DNA of 64,000 bases from Terriglobia bacterium (GTDB lineage: Bacteria > Acidobacteriota > Terriglobia > Terriglobales > Acidobacteriaceae), in contig JAIQFW010000002.1 of NCBI GenBank assembly GCA_020073105.1, positions 6,353-70,352 of the forward strand, read 5' to 3'. The notes beneath the pieces were generated by a model. It had not been told where the DNA came from, did no database searches, and saw only the letters and a program-made list of their open reading frames with translations. Position numbers and translations under genes: made by a program. This document shows, in pieces, positions 18,549-57,874 of this stretch. The stretch's first letter is position 1, and the number at the start of each line of letters is the position of its first letter.

Positions 18549-18596
18549 CCGCCGAGCCCTCTGTGCACTCTGTGTCCTCTGTGTTGAAGATTTTTT
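18549..18596 (+). repeat. CTCTGYG-type unit, single arm
   Basis: CCGCCGAGCCCTCTGTGCACTCTGTGTCCTCTGTGTTGAAGATTTTTT. Confidence 0.85.
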
Positions 18597-19941: not shown

Positions 19942-19946
19942 AACCC

Positions 19947-20044
19947 AAACCACAGAGGACACGGAGGACCCAGAGGATTGACCATGAAAAACCAGATGGA
20001 TTGCTCAACTCTGTGTCCTCTGTGACCTCCGTGGTGCAAGATTT
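19947..20044. repeat. inverted pair of CTCTGYG-type units
   Basis: AAACCACAGAGGACACGGAGGACCCAGAGG ... CAACTCTGTGTCCTCTGTGACCTCCGTGGTGCAAGATTT. Confidence 0.88.
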
Positions 20045-25771: not shown

Positions 25772-26968
<1,197 letters not shown>

Positions 26969-26970
26969 GG

Positions 26971-27053
26971 TTTCTTCCTCTGTGAACTCTGTGTCCTCTG
27001 TGGTGAAAACCAAAAAATCCTAACCACAGAGGGCACAGAGGACACAGAGGTTT
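26971..27053. repeat. inverted pair of CTCTGYG-type units
   Basis: TTTCTTCCTCTGTGAACTCTGTGTCCTCTGTGGTGAAAACC ... TAACCACAGAGGGCACAGAGGACACAGAGGTTT. Lies between the ddl stop and the SAM riboswitch. Confidence 0.88.
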
Positions 27054-27121
27054 GTAACCCCTCTTGACGAACTCCGTCCTCTCTGGGTAGTATCTGTCCA
27101 CCAGTTTGCTCTTCAATAGAG

Positions 27122-27234
27122 CAGACCTTGGATTTCATGCAGAGTGGCTGAGGGACGAGCCCTAAGAAGCCACGACAACCGGATCGGGAGTCATCTCCCG
27201 GTCGCCCGGTGTCAACTCTCTCCTGGAAACGGGG
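27122..27234 (+). promoter_or_regulatory. SAM-I (S-box) riboswitch aptamer
   Basis: P1 ATTTCATG/CATGAGAT. Conserved blocks in canonical order: CAGAG, TGGCTGAGGGA, GAGCCC, AAGAAGCC, GACAACC, GC-rich P3 hairpin, GGTGTCAACTC, P4 CTCC-TGGAAAC-GGGG. Confidence 0.85.
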
Positions 27235-27361
27235 AACATGAGATTCGAGGTGCCGAATTTCCAGCATCTCGTTGACCTCTTTTCCCGTTTTTCCTTCCGA
27301 GAGACTTTTGACACACTAGGTTTTCGACGCTCGTCCCGGAGCCATCGGAAATGAGTGGCCG

Positions 27362-28624
27362 ATGAGTTACGAATTGCGTTGCCGGGAATGCGGCAAGAGT
27401 TGGGGAAACCAGCCCCTTTCGATCTGTGAGGATTGCTTTTCTCCCCTCGAAGTTGCGTACGACTACGAGTGGCTGCGCGGCCCGGTGACGCGCGAGCGCA
27501 TCTCCGCGCGCGCTCCCAACATGTGGCGTTATGCGGAGTTGCTGCCGCTGCCGCAGAATTTCCGGCTCACCGTCCCTGCCGGTTTTACCCCACTGCTGCC
27601 GGCGCCGCGTCTCGCGCAAAGTCTGGGTGCGAAGACGCTGCTGCTCAAAAACGATGCGGTCTGTTTGCCCTCCCTTAGCTTCAAAGACCGCGTCGTGGCA
27701 GTGGCTTTGGCGCAAGCCAGAAATTTCGGCTTCGACACCGTGGCCTGCTCCTCCACGGGGAACCTGGCCAACGCCGTAGCGGCGCAAGCAGCGCGCAACG
27801 GATTGAAAGCCTGGATATTCATCCCCGCCGACCTCGAACCCGCCAAGATTCTCGGCACGCAAGTCTTCGGGGCGAAAGTAGTTCGCATCGCGGGCAGCTA
27901 CGACCAGGTGAACCGCCTCTGCTCGCAGATCGCGGACGAACACCCATGGGGATTCGTGAACGTCAACCTGCGCCCCTACTACGCCGAGGGCTCAAAGACC
28001 GTGGGTTTCGAAATCGCCGAGCAACTGGGCTGGCGCCTGCCAGACAATGTGGTAGTTCCCATGGCGGGCGGATCGCTGATCACGAAAATCAAGAAGGCAT
28101 TCGACGAGTTGGTTTTGTTGGGACTGGTTGAGCCGAAGCCGGTCAAGATCTTCGGCGCACAAGCCACGGGTTGCTCTCCGATCTCAACCGCGGTGAAGGC
28201 AGGGAACGCGGAGATCGAGCCGCAGAAACCGGCGACACTCGCGCGCTCGCTGGCCATCGGCAATCCTGCCGACGGCCACTACGCCATCAAGACCATCCGC
28301 AGCAGCGGCGGCTGGGCCGAGGACATTTCCGATCCCGAGGTCGTTGAGTCCATCCAGCTTCTCGCCCAGACCGAGGGTGTCTTTACCGAGACCGCCGGTG
28401 GAGTCACCGTCGGCTGCGCCCGCAAGCTCTACCAGCAGGGCCGCATTCGTCCGGACGAGACCACCGTGCTCTGCATCACCGGGAACGGTTTGAAGACCAC
28501 CGACATCTTTGCCGGTAAGTATGAAGCCGAGGAGCCAATTCGCCCCAAGATGGCGGACTTTGCGGCTCGGCTGGAAAGAACGTTGGAGCCCCAGCGGCCC
28601 ATTCAAGAATCTGTGGAGGCATGA
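27362..28624 (+). CDS. threonine synthase-family PLP enzyme with N-terminal zinc ribbon (candidate MetM-type homocysteine synthase)
   Basis: CRECG...CEDC ribbon and PSLSFKDRV PLP-lysine motif; 420 aa. Preceded by a SAM riboswitch and followed at 1 nt by a sulfur-carrier gene. Confidence 0.88.
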   Translation: MSYELRCRECGKSWGNQPLSICEDCFSPLEVAYDYEWLRGPVTRERISARAPNMWRYAELLPLPQNFRLTVPAGFTPLLPAPRLAQSLGAKTLLLKNDAVCLPSLSFKDRVVAVALAQARNFGFDTVACSSTGNLANAVAAQAARNGLKAWIFIPADLEPAKILGTQVFGAKVVRIAGSYDQVNRLCSQIADEHPWGFVNVNLRPYYAEGSKTVGFEIAEQLGWRLPDNVVVPMAGGSLITKIKKAFDELVLLGLVEPKPVKIFGAQATGCSPISTAVKAGNAEIEPQKPATLARSLAIGNPADGHYAIKTIRSSGGWAEDISDPEVVESIQLLAQTEGVFTETAGGVTVGCARKLYQQGRIRPDETTVLCITGNGLKTTDIFAGKYEAEEPIRPKMADFAARLERTLEPQRPIQESVEA

Positions 28625-28625
28625 C

Positions 28626-28928
28626 ATGACGGTAACCATCCAAATTCCCAGCGCACTGCGCCGCCACACCGGTGGGGCGGGCAAGGTGACTTGCTCGCCC
28701 GCCAACCTGACCGAGTTGTTCTCCGTGCTCGATCAGCAGTTCCCCGAACTCAAGCCGCACCTGCGCGATGAGGCTGGCGAAGTCCGCCGCTTTCTCAACG
28801 TGTATGTGAACGAGGAAGACATCCGCTTCCTAGGCGGGAACAGCTACGCCTTTCAGGATGGGGATGAAGTGCTACTGGTGCCGTCGATCGCTGGGGGAGC
28901 TTCTTGCCTGCCACAGACGCAGCGATAA
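28626..28928 (+). CDS. MoaD/ThiS-family sulfur-carrier protein with C-terminal extension after Gly-Gly
   Basis: 100 aa. FLNVYVNEEDIRFLGG...GDEVLLVPSIAGG followed by ASCLPQTQR. GGAGG lies 5 nt upstream of the ATG. Confidence 0.85.
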   Translation: MTVTIQIPSALRRHTGGAGKVTCSPANLTELFSVLDQQFPELKPHLRDEAGEVRRFLNVYVNEEDIRFLGGNSYAFQDGDEVLLVPSIAGGASCLPQTQR

Positions 28929-54508: not shown

Positions 54509-54542
54509 GGAGACCTGAGACCTGAATCCTGAGACCTGACCC
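54509..54542. repeat. tandem CCTGAGAC-like repeats
   Basis: GGAGACCTGAGACCTGAATCCTGAGACCTGACCC abuts the stop of the minus-strand E1 gene. Confidence 0.8.
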
Positions 54543-55714
54543 TAGTACTTCGCCATCTTGGGATCCACCCGGTCCGCCCAGGCCAGTATCCCCCCCGCCA
54601 AGTTATGGACTTTCTTGAACCCCGCCTGTTGCAGGAACCCGACCGCCTTCCCGCTGCGCACGCCGGAGCGGCAGTGGGCCACGATCTCGCGGCTGGAATC
54701 CAGTTCGCTCACTCGCTTGGGCAGATCGCCCAGCGGGATCAGGTACCCGCCGATGTTGCAGATCTGGTATTCGTGCGGCTCGCGCACGTCCAGCACAAAC
54801 AGGTCGTCGCCTGCATCGAGGCGCCGCTTGAGTTCTTCGACTTGCATCTCGGGAATGCCTGCTTCCACGGGCTTCTCCTCACCGCGAATTCCGCAAAACT
54901 CGTTGTAGTCTATCAGTTTTGTGATGGTGCGATGCGTGCCGCAAGCCGGGCAGTCGGGGTTCTTGCGCAGCCTTAACTCGCGGAACTTCATGCCGAGCGC
55001 GTCTACGAGCAGTAACCGTCCGATCAGCGGCTCGCCTGTGCCCAGGATGAGCTTGATCACTTCCGTAGCCTGAATCACGCCAACCAGCCCCGGCAGGATC
55101 CCCAGTACCCCACCTTCCGCGCAGGAGGGCACCAGCCCCGGCGGTGGTGGCTCCGGATACAGGCAGCGATAGCAAGGGCCTTCCTCCGTAGCAAATACGC
55201 TGGCCTGTCCCTCGAAGCGGAAAATCGATCCATACACATTAGGCTTACCGCTGAGCACGCACGCGTCGTTCACCAGATAGCGCGTGGGGAAATTATCGGT
55301 TCCATCTGCGATGATGTCGAACTCCCGGAACAGTTCCAGTGCATTCTCGCTGGTCAGCTTGGTCTCGAACGTCCGGATATTCAGGAAGGGATTGATCGCT
55401 TTCAGCTTCTCCGCCGCAGAGTCCAGTTTCTTGCGGCCCACATCGGCCGTCGTGTGAATGATCTGGCGCTGCAGATTCGTATAGTCCACCACATCGAAGT
55501 CCACGATCCCGAGTGTCCCCACCCCAGCCGCACCCAGATAGAGCGCCAGCGGCGAACCCAGTCCACCCGCGCCGATGCACAACACACGTGCCGCCTTGAG
55601 TTTTTGCTGCCCCTCCATGCCTACCTCAGGCATGATCAGGTGGCGCGAGTAGCGCAGAATTTCGTCGTTATTCAGAACGGCGGTTGCGGGTTTGGTTTCG
55701 GTAATGGTGGCCAT
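54542..55714 (-). CDS. moeZ: MoeB/ThiF-family E1-like adenylyltransferase fused to a rhodanese domain (MoeZ type)
   Basis: CIGAGGLGSPLALYLGAAGVG nucleotide loop, CYRC...C zinc site, C-terminal rhodanese with HCRSGVRS active-site loop. Confidence 0.9.
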   Translation of the reverse strand: MATITETKPATAVLNNDEILRYSRHLIMPEVGMEGQQKLKAARVLCIGAGGLGSPLALYLGAAGVGTLGIVDFDVVDYTNLQRQIIHTTADVGRKKLDSAAEKLKAINPFLNIRTFETKLTSENALELFREFDIIADGTDNFPTRYLVNDACVLSGKPNVYGSIFRFEGQASVFATEEGPCYRCLYPEPPPPGLVPSCAEGGVLGILPGLVGVIQATEVIKLILGTGEPLIGRLLLVDALGMKFRELRLRKNPDCPACGTHRTITKLIDYNEFCGIRGEEKPVEAGIPEMQVEELKRRLDAGDDLFVLDVREPHEYQICNIGGYLIPLGDLPKRVSELDSSREIVAHCRSGVRSGKAVGFLQQAGFKKVHNLAGGILAWADRVDPKMAKY

Positions 55715-55821
55715 GGGAACCTCGGTGAATTTGCAATTAAAGGATTGCCGATTGGCGAATCAACAACAGCCGCAGGAGTGGCAACAGCGACGCATGGTAG
55801 GTTTGGTTGGGCAATCGCAAA

Positions 55822-56115
55822 TCATGAAATCGTCAATCCCGCTGCGCCTCCGGCGATGGAAGGCACAATCGAAATAGTATCACTGTCCTTGACCGCGGTG
55901 GCCTCTTTCTGCAGGTAGCGGACATCTTCGTCGTTCAGATAGACATTCACAAAAGCCCGCAGTTTGCCTTCGTCGGTGTAGAGATGGCGGCGCAGGTCGG
56001 GGTGCTTCGAGATCAAGCCGGAAAGGGCATCGCCGATCGTGCCGGCCTTGATCTCGATTGTGGCCTGCTTGCCGGCGTATTGGCGTAGCGGCGTGGGGAT
56101 GTGGATCTTGGTCAT
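55822..56115 (-). CDS. MoaD/ThiS-family sulfur-carrier protein (CysO-like) with extension after Gly-Gly
   Basis: 97 aa from MTKIHIPTPL. FVNVYLNDEDVRYL...ISIVPSIAGG followed by AAGLTIS. Confidence 0.85.
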   Translation of the reverse strand: MTKIHIPTPLRQYAGKQATIEIKAGTIGDALSGLISKHPDLRRHLYTDEGKLRAFVNVYLNDEDVRYLQKEATAVKDSDTISIVPSIAGGAAGLTIS

Positions 56116-56170
56116 ACGGTTAGATGATGCACCGGCGTTGACCGAAGATTCAACATTGCCCCCCACAGTC

Positions 56171-56232
56171 TTGTCATCCCGAGCGGAGCTGCTGGTTCGC
56201 TTGCGAACCAGATGCGGAGTCGAGGGATCTGC
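56171..56232 (+). repeat. TCATCCCGAGC...TCGAGGGATCTGC element (forward copy)
   Basis: TTGTCATCCCGAGCGGAGCTGCTGGTTCGCTTGCGAACCAGATGCGGAGTCGAGGGATCTGC in the JAMM/carrier spacer. Confidence 0.85.
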
Positions 56233-56273
56233 TGTTTGCCGGCAGGGGCCACGGACACCGCTCAGAATTCCAG

Positions 56274-56331
56274 CAGATTCCTCGACACGTCCTCGGCGCA
56301 TCCTGCGCCTGCGGACGGCTCGGAATGGCAA
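56274..56331 (-). repeat. same element, reverse copy
   Basis: GCAGATTCCTCGACACGTCCTCGGCGCATCCTGCGCCTGCGGACGGCTCGGAATGGCAA. Confidence 0.85.
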
Positions 56332-56350
56332 ACTACGAAAGGATGTAGGA

Positions 56351-56377
56351 ACCGCGGGCAGGAATGCCCGCGCTACA
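56351..56377. repeat. hairpin element ACCGCGGGCAGGAATGCCCGCGCTACA
   Basis: GCGGGCA-GGAA-TGCCCGC stem-loop, third structured element in the JAMM/carrier spacer. Confidence 0.6.
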
Positions 56378-56382
56378 CCCGC

Positions 56383-56814
56383 TCAAGTTACCTTGATCTC
56401 CTCCTCTACCAGCTTCTTATCGTTCTCCTCACTCCCCACCAGCTCAAACGAATTCGTCACCGCCGCCTTGCCTTTCTCCACGCTGGTGATCACATAGGAG
56501 CAGCCGATCCAATGCGCCTCGGCGAGGTCGGTCGGGGACCAACGCGGCGGATGATCGGGATGAGAGTGATAAAAGCCGACGATGTCCTCTCCACGCTCGC
56601 GCCCTTCCCGCTGAATGCGGATCAACTCGCGGGGGTCGATGTTATAGCGGTTGTGCGGCGAATCACTTCGCGTATTTCCGCAACGCGCCACCGACGTCAC
56701 GATTCGCGCGTCCCCGTCCATCTGCCCCAGCAACACTCCGCAGCACTCATGGGGATAGGTGTCCTCGCCGTGCTGACGAAGGGCGTCGTAGTGCGATTGG
56801 CCGATTTTCAACAT
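56383..56814 (-). CDS. JAMM/MPN+ metalloprotease (Mec-like)
   Basis: HECCGVLLG and GFYHSHPDHPPRWSPTD (HxHx7Sx2D). Start moved to MLKIG because the upstream codons lie in a repeat. Confidence 0.88.
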   Translation of the reverse strand: MLKIGQSHYDALRQHGEDTYPHECCGVLLGQMDGDARIVTSVARCGNTRSDSPHNRYNIDPRELIRIQREGRERGEDIVGFYHSHPDHPPRWSPTDLAEAHWIGCSYVITSVEKGKAAVTNSFELVGSEENDKKLVEEEIKVT

Positions 56815-56823
56815 ACCCCAGAA

Positions 56824-56902
56824 CCCACCACAGAGCCACAGAGGCACAGAGAACAAGAGAATTGGAATCCTCTGTGTACTCTGTGCCCTCTGTGGTAAAG
56901 AC
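56824..56902. repeat. inverted pair of CTCTGYG-type units filling the cysteine synthase / JAMM spacer
   Basis: CCCACCACAGAGCCACAGAGGCACAGAGAAC ... ATCCTCTGTGTACTCTGTGCCCTCTGTGGTAAAGAC. Confidence 0.88.
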
Positions 56903-57874
56903 TTACCCTTCCTCCCAGAATCTCTCGCTCAGATACTTGTCCCCGGAATCCGGCAGGATGGTCACAAACACGCCAGTTTCGTTCTTCTTGAGCTGCCGCG
57001 CCAGCTGCACACACCCAGCGACGGCGGCCGCCGCGGAAACGCCCACCAGCAGTCCCTCTTCGCGCGCCAAACGCTTGGCCATCGCATAAGCGTCCTCGGT
57101 GGCAATGCCCACGTCAGCATCCGCCAGCGACGTGTCGTAGATTTTCGGCACGATCGCCGTAGCCATGTGCTTGGCGCCTTCGATGCCGTGAAACGGAGAA
57201 TCTGGCTGCAGCGAGATGCAGCGCACGCGAGGGTTCAATTCTTTCAAGCGCCGCGCCGTGCCCACGAACGTGCCGCTGGTTCCCAACATGGAAACGAAGT
57301 GGGTGATACGTCCTTCCGTCTGTTGCCAGATTTCGTTGGCTGTGCCATGGTAGTGAGCCAGCCAGTTGGCGTCGTTGGAATACTGGTCGGCGTAGAAGTA
57401 GAGTTCAGGATGCTTGGCGGCGAGTTCGCGGGCCAGGCGGATCGCGCCATCGGAGCCCTCGTCCGGATCGGTATAAAGGATATTCGCGCCGTAGGCGTGC
57501 AGAATACGTTTGCGCTCGATGGAAACATTCTCCGGCATGCACAGCGTAACCGGAAAATTCAGCGCGGCGCCGATCATGGCGTAGGCAATGCCGGTGTTTC
57601 CGCTGGTGGAGTCGAGCAGAATTTTACCGGATGTTAACTTGCCACTGGCGCGAGCTTGAGCGACGATGTTGGCCGCGGCCCGGTCCTTGACCGAGCCTCC
57701 GGGATTGAACCACTCGGCTTTGCCGAGAATCTCGGCGGCGGGCAACTCCTGGGCAATGCGCCCCAGTCGCAGCAACGGGGTGTTGCCAATCCGGTCCAGA
57801 CTCCGCTCACCTAGACTGGCTTGATGTGCTGGAGGAATAGACACTTGCACCGATTTTCGCGAGGTGCCTGACAT
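56903..57874 (-). CDS. cysteine synthase-family PLP enzyme (CysM/CysK-like)
   Basis: IGNTPLLRL, NPGGSVKDRAA (PLP lysine), and SGNTGIAYA. Confidence 0.9.
   Translation of the reverse strand: MSGTSRKSVQVSIPPAHQASLGERSLDRIGNTPLLRLGRIAQELPAAEILGKAEWFNPGGSVKDRAAANIVAQARASGKLTSGKILLDSTSGNTGIAYAMIGAALNFPVTLCMPENVSIERKRILHAYGANILYTDPDEGSDGAIRLARELAAKHPELYFYADQYSNDANWLAHYHGTANEIWQQTEGRITHFVSMLGTSGTFVGTARRLKELNPRVRCISLQPDSPFHGIEGAKHMATAIVPKIYDTSLADADVGIATEDAYAMAKRLAREEGLLVGVSAAAAVAGCVQLARQLKKNETGVFVTILPDSGDKYLSERFWEEG

Follow-up and report, generated by a model that had tools for sequence, protein, structure and literature searches.

A putative MetM/MetO-type methionine operon behind a SAM-I riboswitch in a Terriglobia acidobacterium

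The closest described counterpart of the locus reported here is the metM/metO system of Streptomyces albulus, as related by papers (PMC12172450; GapMind 2026) that cite its source (Hasebe et al. 2024, Appl Environ Microbiol 90:e01247-24). According to these citing papers, MetM is a threonine synthase (ThrC) homologue that uses O-phosphohomoserine and the sulfur carrier MetO to form homocysteine, an S-adenosylmethionine (SAM) riboswitch lies upstream of metM (PMC12172450), and Mec and MoeZ are required by metM/metO as accessory enzymes. Here we describe the aptamer, gene order, family relationships, accessory genes and conserved complementarity of a locus in a 64-kb stretch of DNA (the window; 64,000 nucleotides of contig JAIQFW010000002.1) from an uncultured soil acidobacterium of the class Terriglobia, in which a SAM-I riboswitch precedes the genes for a ThrC-fold enzyme and a sulfur carrier. 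This locus is very likely to be a methionine-pathway operon of the MetM/MetO type. The route itself was already published in 2024 and is included in GapMind 2026, and the acidobacterial case adds a new member to it. The original prediction, made from the letters of the window, had pointed to this Streptomyces route, and the citing papers, as far as they describe it, confirm that it is real.

The riboswitch operon and its relatives

The operon comprised the following features:

27132..27244, + strand: SAM-I riboswitch aptamer (RF00162), 67.0 bits against a gathering score of 44.4, E 1.9e-13
27362..28624, + strand: MetM-like ThrC-fold enzyme dependent on pyridoxal 5'-phosphate (PLP), 420 amino acids, predicted O-phosphohomoserine-dependent homocysteine synthase, from Pfam/TIGRFAM matches and a tree
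28626..28928, + strand: MetO-like ThiS/MoaD sulfur carrier, 100 amino acids, PF02597 44.4 bits against a cut-off of 22.5

Analysis of the window with cmscan and Rfam 15 revealed RF00162 (SAM-I) to be the sole match above its gathering score, and the match was of full length, spanning model positions 1-108 of 108. The SAM-I aptamer of the original prediction therefore stood, with all of the blocks that it had listed present; its RNA coordinates (27122-27234) were 10 nucleotides (nt) too low, so that the gap between the aptamer and the ATG is 117 nt and not ~127 nt. P1 was formed by ATTTCATG/CATGAGAT (8 bp including one G-U) and was followed by CAGAG, GTGGCTGAGGGACGAGCCCTAAGAAGCCAC, GACAACC, a GC-rich P3, GGTGTCAACTCT and P4 (CTCC-TGGAAAC-GGGG). 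In the consensus alignment P1, P2 (GAGGGA...GCCC), P3 and P4 were all paired, with a non-canonical flag at two pair positions only, and the aptamer folded by itself gave the same helices. The four-helix SAM-I architecture was found, and so were the sequences conserved at the junction and in the P2 core. The RNA conforms to the SAM-I model and is predicted to bind SAM and to change expression.

The 420 amino acid open reading frame (ORF) downstream matched PF00291 with 224 bits and carried the features of a ThrC-family PLP enzyme that had been claimed for it, namely the N-terminal four-Cys ribbon (C7xxC10...C22xxC25) and the PLP lysine within LSFKDR. The enzyme shared 50-58% identity with riboswitch-linked actinobacterial MetM-like proteins, those of Streptomyces included, and 34-36% with four solved ThrCs (PDB 2zsj, 6cgq, 1uim and 2d1f, all canonical short threonine synthases), which aligned to it only from residue 50-57 on. 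A neighbour-joining tree placed the enzyme inside a large clade shared with MetM-like proteins of Actinobacteria and with further homologues that are uncharacterised, whereas the four solved bacterial ThrCs formed a separate clade. The same division was seen in the motifs, listed here first for the window and Streptomyces proteins and then for ThrC:

SFKDRVV; ThrC, SFKDRGM
STGNLA (phosphate loop); ThrC, STGNT(S/A)
VNVNLRPYYAEGSKT; ThrC, VN-SVNPxRxEGQKT
AIGNPADG; ThrC, RIGNPASW
GLKT; ThrC, GLKD

The loop motifs of characterised ThrCs (SFKDRGM, STGNT(S/A) and VN-SVNPxRxEGQKT) were absent from the enzyme, which resembles MetM-type proteins more than it does threonine synthases that have been characterised. 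The earlier proposal that it is a homocysteine synthase and not the housekeeping ThrC is supported by the tree, the identities and the motifs. The four-Cys N-terminal ribbon was also considered as a marker of MetM and was dropped, as two proteins with canonical-type motifs (P0356 and P0370) aligned from the first residues of the query; both appear to carry the N-terminal region as well.

A scan of 185,579 species genomes with an alignment headed by an actinobacterial homologue identified 80 actinobacterial loci, from Streptomyces, Kitasatospora, Micromonospora and others. RF00162 was directly upstream of the enzyme homologue in all 16 of the actinobacterial loci tested, and a ThiS/MoaD gene was detected directly downstream in 44 of the 80, including those of Streptomyces and Kitasatospora. 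Within Terriglobia, a SAM-I aptamer passed Rfam upstream of the homologous gene in 20/20 loci tested, and the carrier gene adjoined the enzyme gene in 73 of the 74 loci having downstream room. No moaE, thiG or thiF neighbours were present at the enzyme-carrier locus.

Several points weigh against the MetM/MetO reading. The enzyme scored 265.7 bits against TIGR00260, the thrC equivalog, and so passed its threonine-synthase cut-off (167.1), and no hidden Markov model (HMM) tells the two functions apart. A tblastn search with three solved ThrCs found no separate canonical thrC in the window or in 165 fetched loci, where only the MetM-like gene matched; cluster look-ups likewise gave no acidobacterial canonical ThrC among named distant representatives. 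Additionally, orthology rests on Streptomyces loci other than that of S. albulus, picked by their published architecture, and the case for this organism is one of sequence comparison.

The TIGR00260 score and the lack of another thrC in the window would suit a genuine threonine synthase, either the sole one or a second copy, placed under SAM control, with the ThiS/MoaD gene serving the molybdopterin or thiamine pathway. The public records agree with this by name: the record identical to the 420 amino acid product (Acidobacteriia / Terriglobia bacterium) is called "threonine synthase", as is every named enzyme homologue within the top 120. This annotation is explained by the fact that the MetM-like proteins of Streptomyces (260-272 bits), like that of the window, pass the thrC equivalog while the NCBI HMM families contain no MetM model. 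A threonine synthase is made less likely by the lower identity to the solved ThrCs than to the MetM-like clade, by the replacement of the STGNT(S/A) phosphate loop with STGNLA as in the Streptomyces proteins, by a carrier gene that starts 1 nt past the enzyme stop and stays adjacent in the relatives, and by the absence of moaE, thiG and thiF at the locus. SAM repression of a sole threonine synthase would also be expected to starve the cell of threonine when methionine is plentiful. We regard a threonine synthase as highly improbable.

The carrier tail, the accessory genes and the predicted pathway

The enzyme stop codon (TGA, 28622-28624) was separated by one base from the carrier ATG at 28626. 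The carrier ended in VPSIAGG-ASCLPQTQR, in agreement with the earlier description of a 100 amino acid, MoaD/ThiS-fold protein with this tail. The Gly-Gly pair (residues 90-91; codons 28893-28898) was followed by 9 more residues (28899-28925), and it would become accessible for adenylation only once these are cleaved. Adenylation of ThiS, MoaD and CysO needs a free Gly carboxylate. On four contigs of independent assembly the same 100 amino acid gene with its tail was called, and for three of these contigs the sequence of the tail was read.

Residues beyond the Gly-Gly were present in 118 of the 120 closest carrier homologues, usually two residues and at the longest ~32, with no common sequence. 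The two closest relatives, in which the enzyme is 93% identical, encoded a 91 amino acid carrier that stops directly at GG (L165:2765-3040 and L166:1280-1555, compared with 28626-28928 in the window). From immediately past the Gly-Gly codons, the DNA of both relatives and their next gene were unlike those of the window, which indicates that the window tail arose at a recent sequence junction; a rearrangement breakpoint thus coincides exactly with the end of the carrier gene. Variation of the tails in length and sequence and their absence in the nearest relatives are as expected of a removable cap. The tails would then be neutral caps, put up with because a JAMM peptidase cuts after the Gly-Gly.

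A gene cluster on the opposite strand of the window, 26 kb downstream of the riboswitch operon (54542-57874), encoded a CysM-type enzyme, a JAMM peptidase, a tailed carrier and MoeZ; the original prediction was silent on it:

56903..57874, - strand: CysM/CysK-family cysteine synthase, 323 amino acids, PF00291 232 bits
56383..56814, - strand: JAMM/MPN+ metallopeptidase (Mec-like), 143 amino acids, motif HSHPDHPPRWSPTD, with the HSHPx7SxxD motif intact
55822..56115, - strand: second carrier (CysO/SAMP1-like), 97 amino acids, ending VPSIAGG-AAGLTIS, NF041918 61.1 bits against a cut-off of 60
54542..55714, - strand: MoeZ-type E1 (ThiF plus rhodanese), 390 amino acids, PF00899 286 bits, PF00581

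Some of the more specific models were matched under their cut-offs: the cysteine synthase scored 354 bits against TIGR01138 cysM (cut-off 394), the JAMM protein 94 bits against the desampylase model NF041370 (cut-off 130), and the MoeZ-type protein 511 bits against NF005902 MoeZ and 547 bits against NF005646. The two companions of a capped carrier, an E1 (54542-55714) and a JAMM peptidase (56383-56814), were both present, and between them they are predicted to provide just those two activities that are missing from the MetM/MetO locus itself. The earlier view that the carrier must lose its tail before use is consistent with this pair of genes.

Comparison with the actinobacterial loci supports the MetM/MetO reading, and from it we infer both the chemistry and the trimming. 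The ThrC-fold enzyme would take O-phosphohomoserine and eliminate phosphate, and sulfur from the C-terminal thiocarboxylate of the carrier, presumably co-translated with the enzyme, would be added to give homocysteine. Before the carrier is used its 9-residue tail would be removed, the likely trimmer being the JAMM peptidase encoded 27 kb downstream, and the MoeZ-type E1 encoded beside that peptidase would most likely adenylate and thiocarboxylate the trimmed carrier. The CysM-JAMM-carrier-MoeZ cluster probably makes cysteine in the same manner. One feature of the cluster also counts against this scheme. The second carrier, 38% identical to the MetO-like carrier, resembles Streptomyces MetO as much as the MetO-like carrier does, so the assignment of each carrier to its enzyme rests on gene order.

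The operon might instead carry out SAM-regulated sulfur chemistry other than the formation of homocysteine from O-phosphohomoserine, with another phospho- or acyl-amino acid as substrate, or with free sulfide and a different role for the carrier. Substrate specificity cannot be read from sequence, and a cyanobacterial homologue with 51.6% identity to S. albulus MetM was reported to be mainly threonine-related rather than a MetM (PMC12172450). The gene for that homologue is, however, without a SAM riboswitch (PMC12172450), whereas the window matches the characterised Streptomyces system in riboswitch, gene order and clade. Such a different chemistry has little probability, and homocysteine synthesis from O-phosphohomoserine is retained as the predicted function.

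Within the cluster, a GC-rich gap of 267 nt (56116-56382, - strand) separates the JAMM stop from the likely start of the second carrier, and a mechanical ORF that begins at a TTG spans it. A permissive Rfam scan gave nothing in this gap; over the cysM-moeZ cluster it gave only miRNA-like matches, dismissed as chance, on a palindromic repeat. Intergenic palindromic repeats of this kind were located at 26973-27055, 56824-56900 and 19946-20030, with a half copy at 18554-18589. They were built of three 9-nt units with CTCTGTG, a spacer and three units with CACAGAG, and the heptamer occurred in 26 copies in the window against 8 expected. One repeat separates ddl from the riboswitch promoter, and a second occupies the gap between the cysM and JAMM genes. 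These repeats are probably repetitive extragenic palindromic (REP)-like elements or terminators.

The leader downstream of the aptamer

The leader of the window was compared with those of relatives from 80 metagenomic loci, giving 66 distinct leaders. They shared the order promoter, small 5' hairpin, aptamer, hairpin H1, terminator (in many), GGCTCGTCCC element and pre-ATG hairpin. In the window the parts downstream of the aptamer were as follows:

27246..27271, + strand: hairpin H1, CGAGGTGC-loop-GCATCTCG, directly 3' of P1, -10.9 kcal/mol
27272..27314, + strand: pyrimidine-rich tract and terminator remnant, window equivalents at -0.9 and -3.8 kcal/mol
27329..27354, + strand: segment beside the start codon complementary to the aptamer 5' half, from the leader fold and duplex energy
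27341..27364, + strand: hairpins over the ribosome-binding region and start codon, -5.3 and -6.1 kcal/mol

The segment beside the start codon could pair with the aptamer 5' half in three blocks, GCTCGTCCC (27329-37) with GGGACGAGC (27152-60), AGCCAT (27340-45) with GTGGCT (27144-49) and ATGA (27351-54) with TCAT (27135-38). This long-range helix belonged to the minimum-energy fold of the whole leader, which reached -119.2 kcal/mol as against -104.5 kcal/mol when P1 was enforced. The duplex energy in the window was -30.2 kcal/mol compared with -15.4 +/- 2.7 for shuffles. Over 56 leaders the median was -35.9 against -16.4 kcal/mol for shuffles (z -6.5); the duplex beat all 200 shuffles in 54 leaders, and its partner window was the best one in 56/56. 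In fixed register 92% of the cells of the helix were pairable, compared with 36-49% when the register was slid. This conserved complementarity between the start-codon side and the aptamer 5' half suggests translational control.

The start-codon region could also form hairpins of its own, GCCAT/GTGGC (27341-45 with 27355-59) and CATCGG/CCGATG (27343-48 with 27359-64, ATG included). In related leaders the conserved GGCTCGTCCC element was followed by an equivalent hairpin, GCTACTCGC/GCGAGTAGC, which ended 1-5 nt upstream of the ATG and had 88.9% of its cells paired as against 48% or less when slid; xATCGG/CCGATG was retained in L085 and L165. The 5' arm of the start-site hairpin was part of the long-range segment, and its 3' arm (GAGTGGC or GAGTAGC) copied the GAGTGGC of the aptamer. 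In one subclade (leaders L089, L094-L098, L101, L104, L106, L108, L114, L121 and L136) the MetM-like protein is extended at its N-terminus, with ~10-25 additional residues (MSATASV...) encoded after the start-site hairpin and ahead of the four-Cys ribbon.

In the proposed mechanism, the aptamer with SAM bound would retain its own 5' half, and the freed downstream segment would fold with the ribosome-binding region and start codon so that initiation is blocked; when SAM is absent, the downstream segment would pair with the aptamer 5' half and leave the start site open. By way of the SAM-I riboswitch, SAM would thus switch off expression of the operon, and we infer both this direction and the level of regulation. 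Other details of the alignment count against such a switch. The variable columns of the long-range helix held only C/T opposite G or A/G opposite U, and its aptamer side did not vary, which leaves no true compensatory changes; covariation of the start-site hairpin was weak, and the hairpins of the window are of just -5 to -6 kcal/mol. RNAalifold, run on the region next to the start codon, gave no more than a 4-bp helix with negligible energy.

SAM could instead act on transcription, by termination at H1 and the pyrimidine tract, at a weak hairpin (27289-27307) or via Rho, the downstream complement then having some other role. Classical SAM-I leaders end transcription, and a terminator-like hairpin was present in 60 of the 66 leaders. 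A good terminator was found in ~43 of the 66, as (N)CCTCTTTTCC-loop-GGAAAAGAGG(N) with a T-rich tail at -12 to -18 kcal/mol, and ~15 relatives had a T-rich run directly after H1, the arms of which differed among relatives (for example CGGAACGC/GCTTTCCG and GAGATGC/GCATCTC). The P4 loop and 3' strand could additionally pair with the pyrimidine tract as an antiterminator, with a median of -15 kcal/mol against -10.6 for shuffles. That complementarity, however, was barely above shuffles, as 34 of the 66 leaders had 5/100 or fewer shuffles as good, and the start-codon-side complement was far more strongly conserved. In the window itself the terminator candidates reached no lower than the -0.9 and -3.8 kcal/mol listed above, and no clean T run followed H1. 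The terminator 3' arm was lost in the window and in three of its closest relatives, L085, L086 and L165 (the L166 leader was cut off), and the terminator appears to have decayed in this lineage, which explains why the original prediction had found no clean intrinsic terminator. Control of transcription in place of start-site occlusion is on balance unlikely.

Plain minimum-energy folds of the relatives showed no antiterminator, H1 and the terminator forming with or without the aptamer. Switches between the P1 3' strand and the H1 3' arm, and between the P4 5' strand and the H1 5' arm, were set aside, since pairing with the nearer partner should prevail.

Start-site occlusion would make the Terriglobia SAM-I platform an unusual one, in which the aptamer 5' half (P1 5' strand, P2a and P2b) and not the P1 3' strand pairs over ~190 nt with the start-codon segment in competition with a start-site hairpin, stacked on a terminator in most leaders and with that terminator lost in the window's lineage, and in which the carriers tolerate arbitrary tails, gained and lost between close relatives, through JAMM trimming. 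We put this combined proposal forward tentatively, at somewhat less than an even chance. Literature searches on such an expression platform, or on an S-box with threonine synthase and MoaD, returned nothing relevant.

Two further features lie 5' of the aptamer:

27064..27093, + strand: promoter-like site TTGACG-18-TAGTAT, sigma-70-like, from a consensus scan
27104..27126, + strand: hairpin at the leader 5' end, GTTTGCTC-TTCAATA-GAGCAGAC, upstream of P1, flagged as terminator-like and predicted in the leader fold

Both promoter hexamers were conserved across the alignment of the 66 leaders (consensus cTTGACg ... gTAgtAT). The 5'-end hairpin was kept in nearly all of them as GCTC-TTCG-GAGC, with one variant, AGCC-GTA-AGGC, changed in both arms, and it may stabilise the 5' end of the transcript. 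An ORF of 117 amino acids (26914-27267, - strand) runs antisense to the promoter and riboswitch; public contigs list it among their genes, it matched no Pfam family, and it is almost certainly not a real gene.

Comparison with known systems

If the MetM/MetO reading is true, thiocarboxylate-dependent homocysteine synthesis would be common in Terriglobia, and recognising the MetM-like clade would correct methionine-pathway reconstruction for these abundant soil bacteria. Every component for a reconstitution (MetM, MetO, JAMM peptidase and MoeZ) is encoded within one 64-kb stretch, and the Terriglobia leaders offer a natural series with and without a terminator, in which one aptamer would be coupled to two modes of expression control. 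What is known of the MetM/MetO pathway itself does not change; what may be added to it is modest, the clade-level peculiarities of capped carriers and a long-range expression platform.

The window shares with the S. albulus system, as far as the citing papers describe it, a SAM-I riboswitch, a ThrC homologue, a ThiS/MoaD carrier and, as predicted for the window, dependence on a Mec-type JAMM hydrolase and MoeZ. With the Streptomyces loci of MetM/MetO architecture it shares the enzyme clade and motifs, and it differs from them in phylum and in sequence, at ~53% identity for the enzyme and 37-41% for the carrier. Actinobacterial carriers end at GG or GG-Cys, whereas those of Terriglobia almost always have longer, variable tails. 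Actinobacterial leaders are of a simpler design, with a Shine-Dalgarno sequence in or beside the P1 3' strand; the window leader extends 117 nt past the aptamer and has another platform.

The cluster at 54542-57874 corresponds to the CysO/CysM/Mec/MoeZ route of Mycobacterium tuberculosis. The chemistry of CysO-CysM is of the same kind as that predicted for the riboswitch operon, a PLP enzyme using a carrier thiocarboxylate on a phospho-amino acid, but there cysteine is made from O-phosphoserine by a CysM-fold enzyme, whereas the window enzyme is ThrC-fold and riboswitch-controlled. In the HcyS-HcyD-HcyF-MetY system of Wolinella succinogenes, reportedly described by Krishnamoorthy and Begley in 2011, the newly made carrier reportedly ends in one additional residue, which is cleaved off by a JAMM-type peptidase. 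A carrier thiocarboxylate is the source of the homocysteine sulfur in that system too, but the partners are O-acetylhomoserine and MetY, of the Cys/Met-metabolism PLP fold, and not O-phosphohomoserine and a ThrC-fold enzyme. MetY uses the carrier thiocarboxylate (PMC8191291). A gene neighbourhood of the same composition as the window cluster, with a JAB peptidase and an E1-rhodanese fusion beside a cysteine synthase and a ThiS/MoaD carrier, was classed as type 4c by Iyer, Burroughs and Aravind (2006), who list it for the acidobacterium Solibacter usitatus (PMC1779556).

Canonical class I threonine synthases agree with the window enzyme in fold and in the SFKDR lysine that binds PLP, and probably also in their substrate, O-phosphohomoserine. 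They differ from it in lacking the N-terminal four-Cys ribbon of ~55 residues, in their loop motifs and in overall sequence (34-36% identity), and they have no link to a carrier or a SAM riboswitch. Classical Bacillota S-box leaders, finally, have the same aptamer class, and most of the Terriglobia relatives also share their terminator hairpin. In the window, by contrast, the terminator appears decayed, and the predicted switching partners are the aptamer 5' half and a segment ~190 nt downstream, by the start codon.

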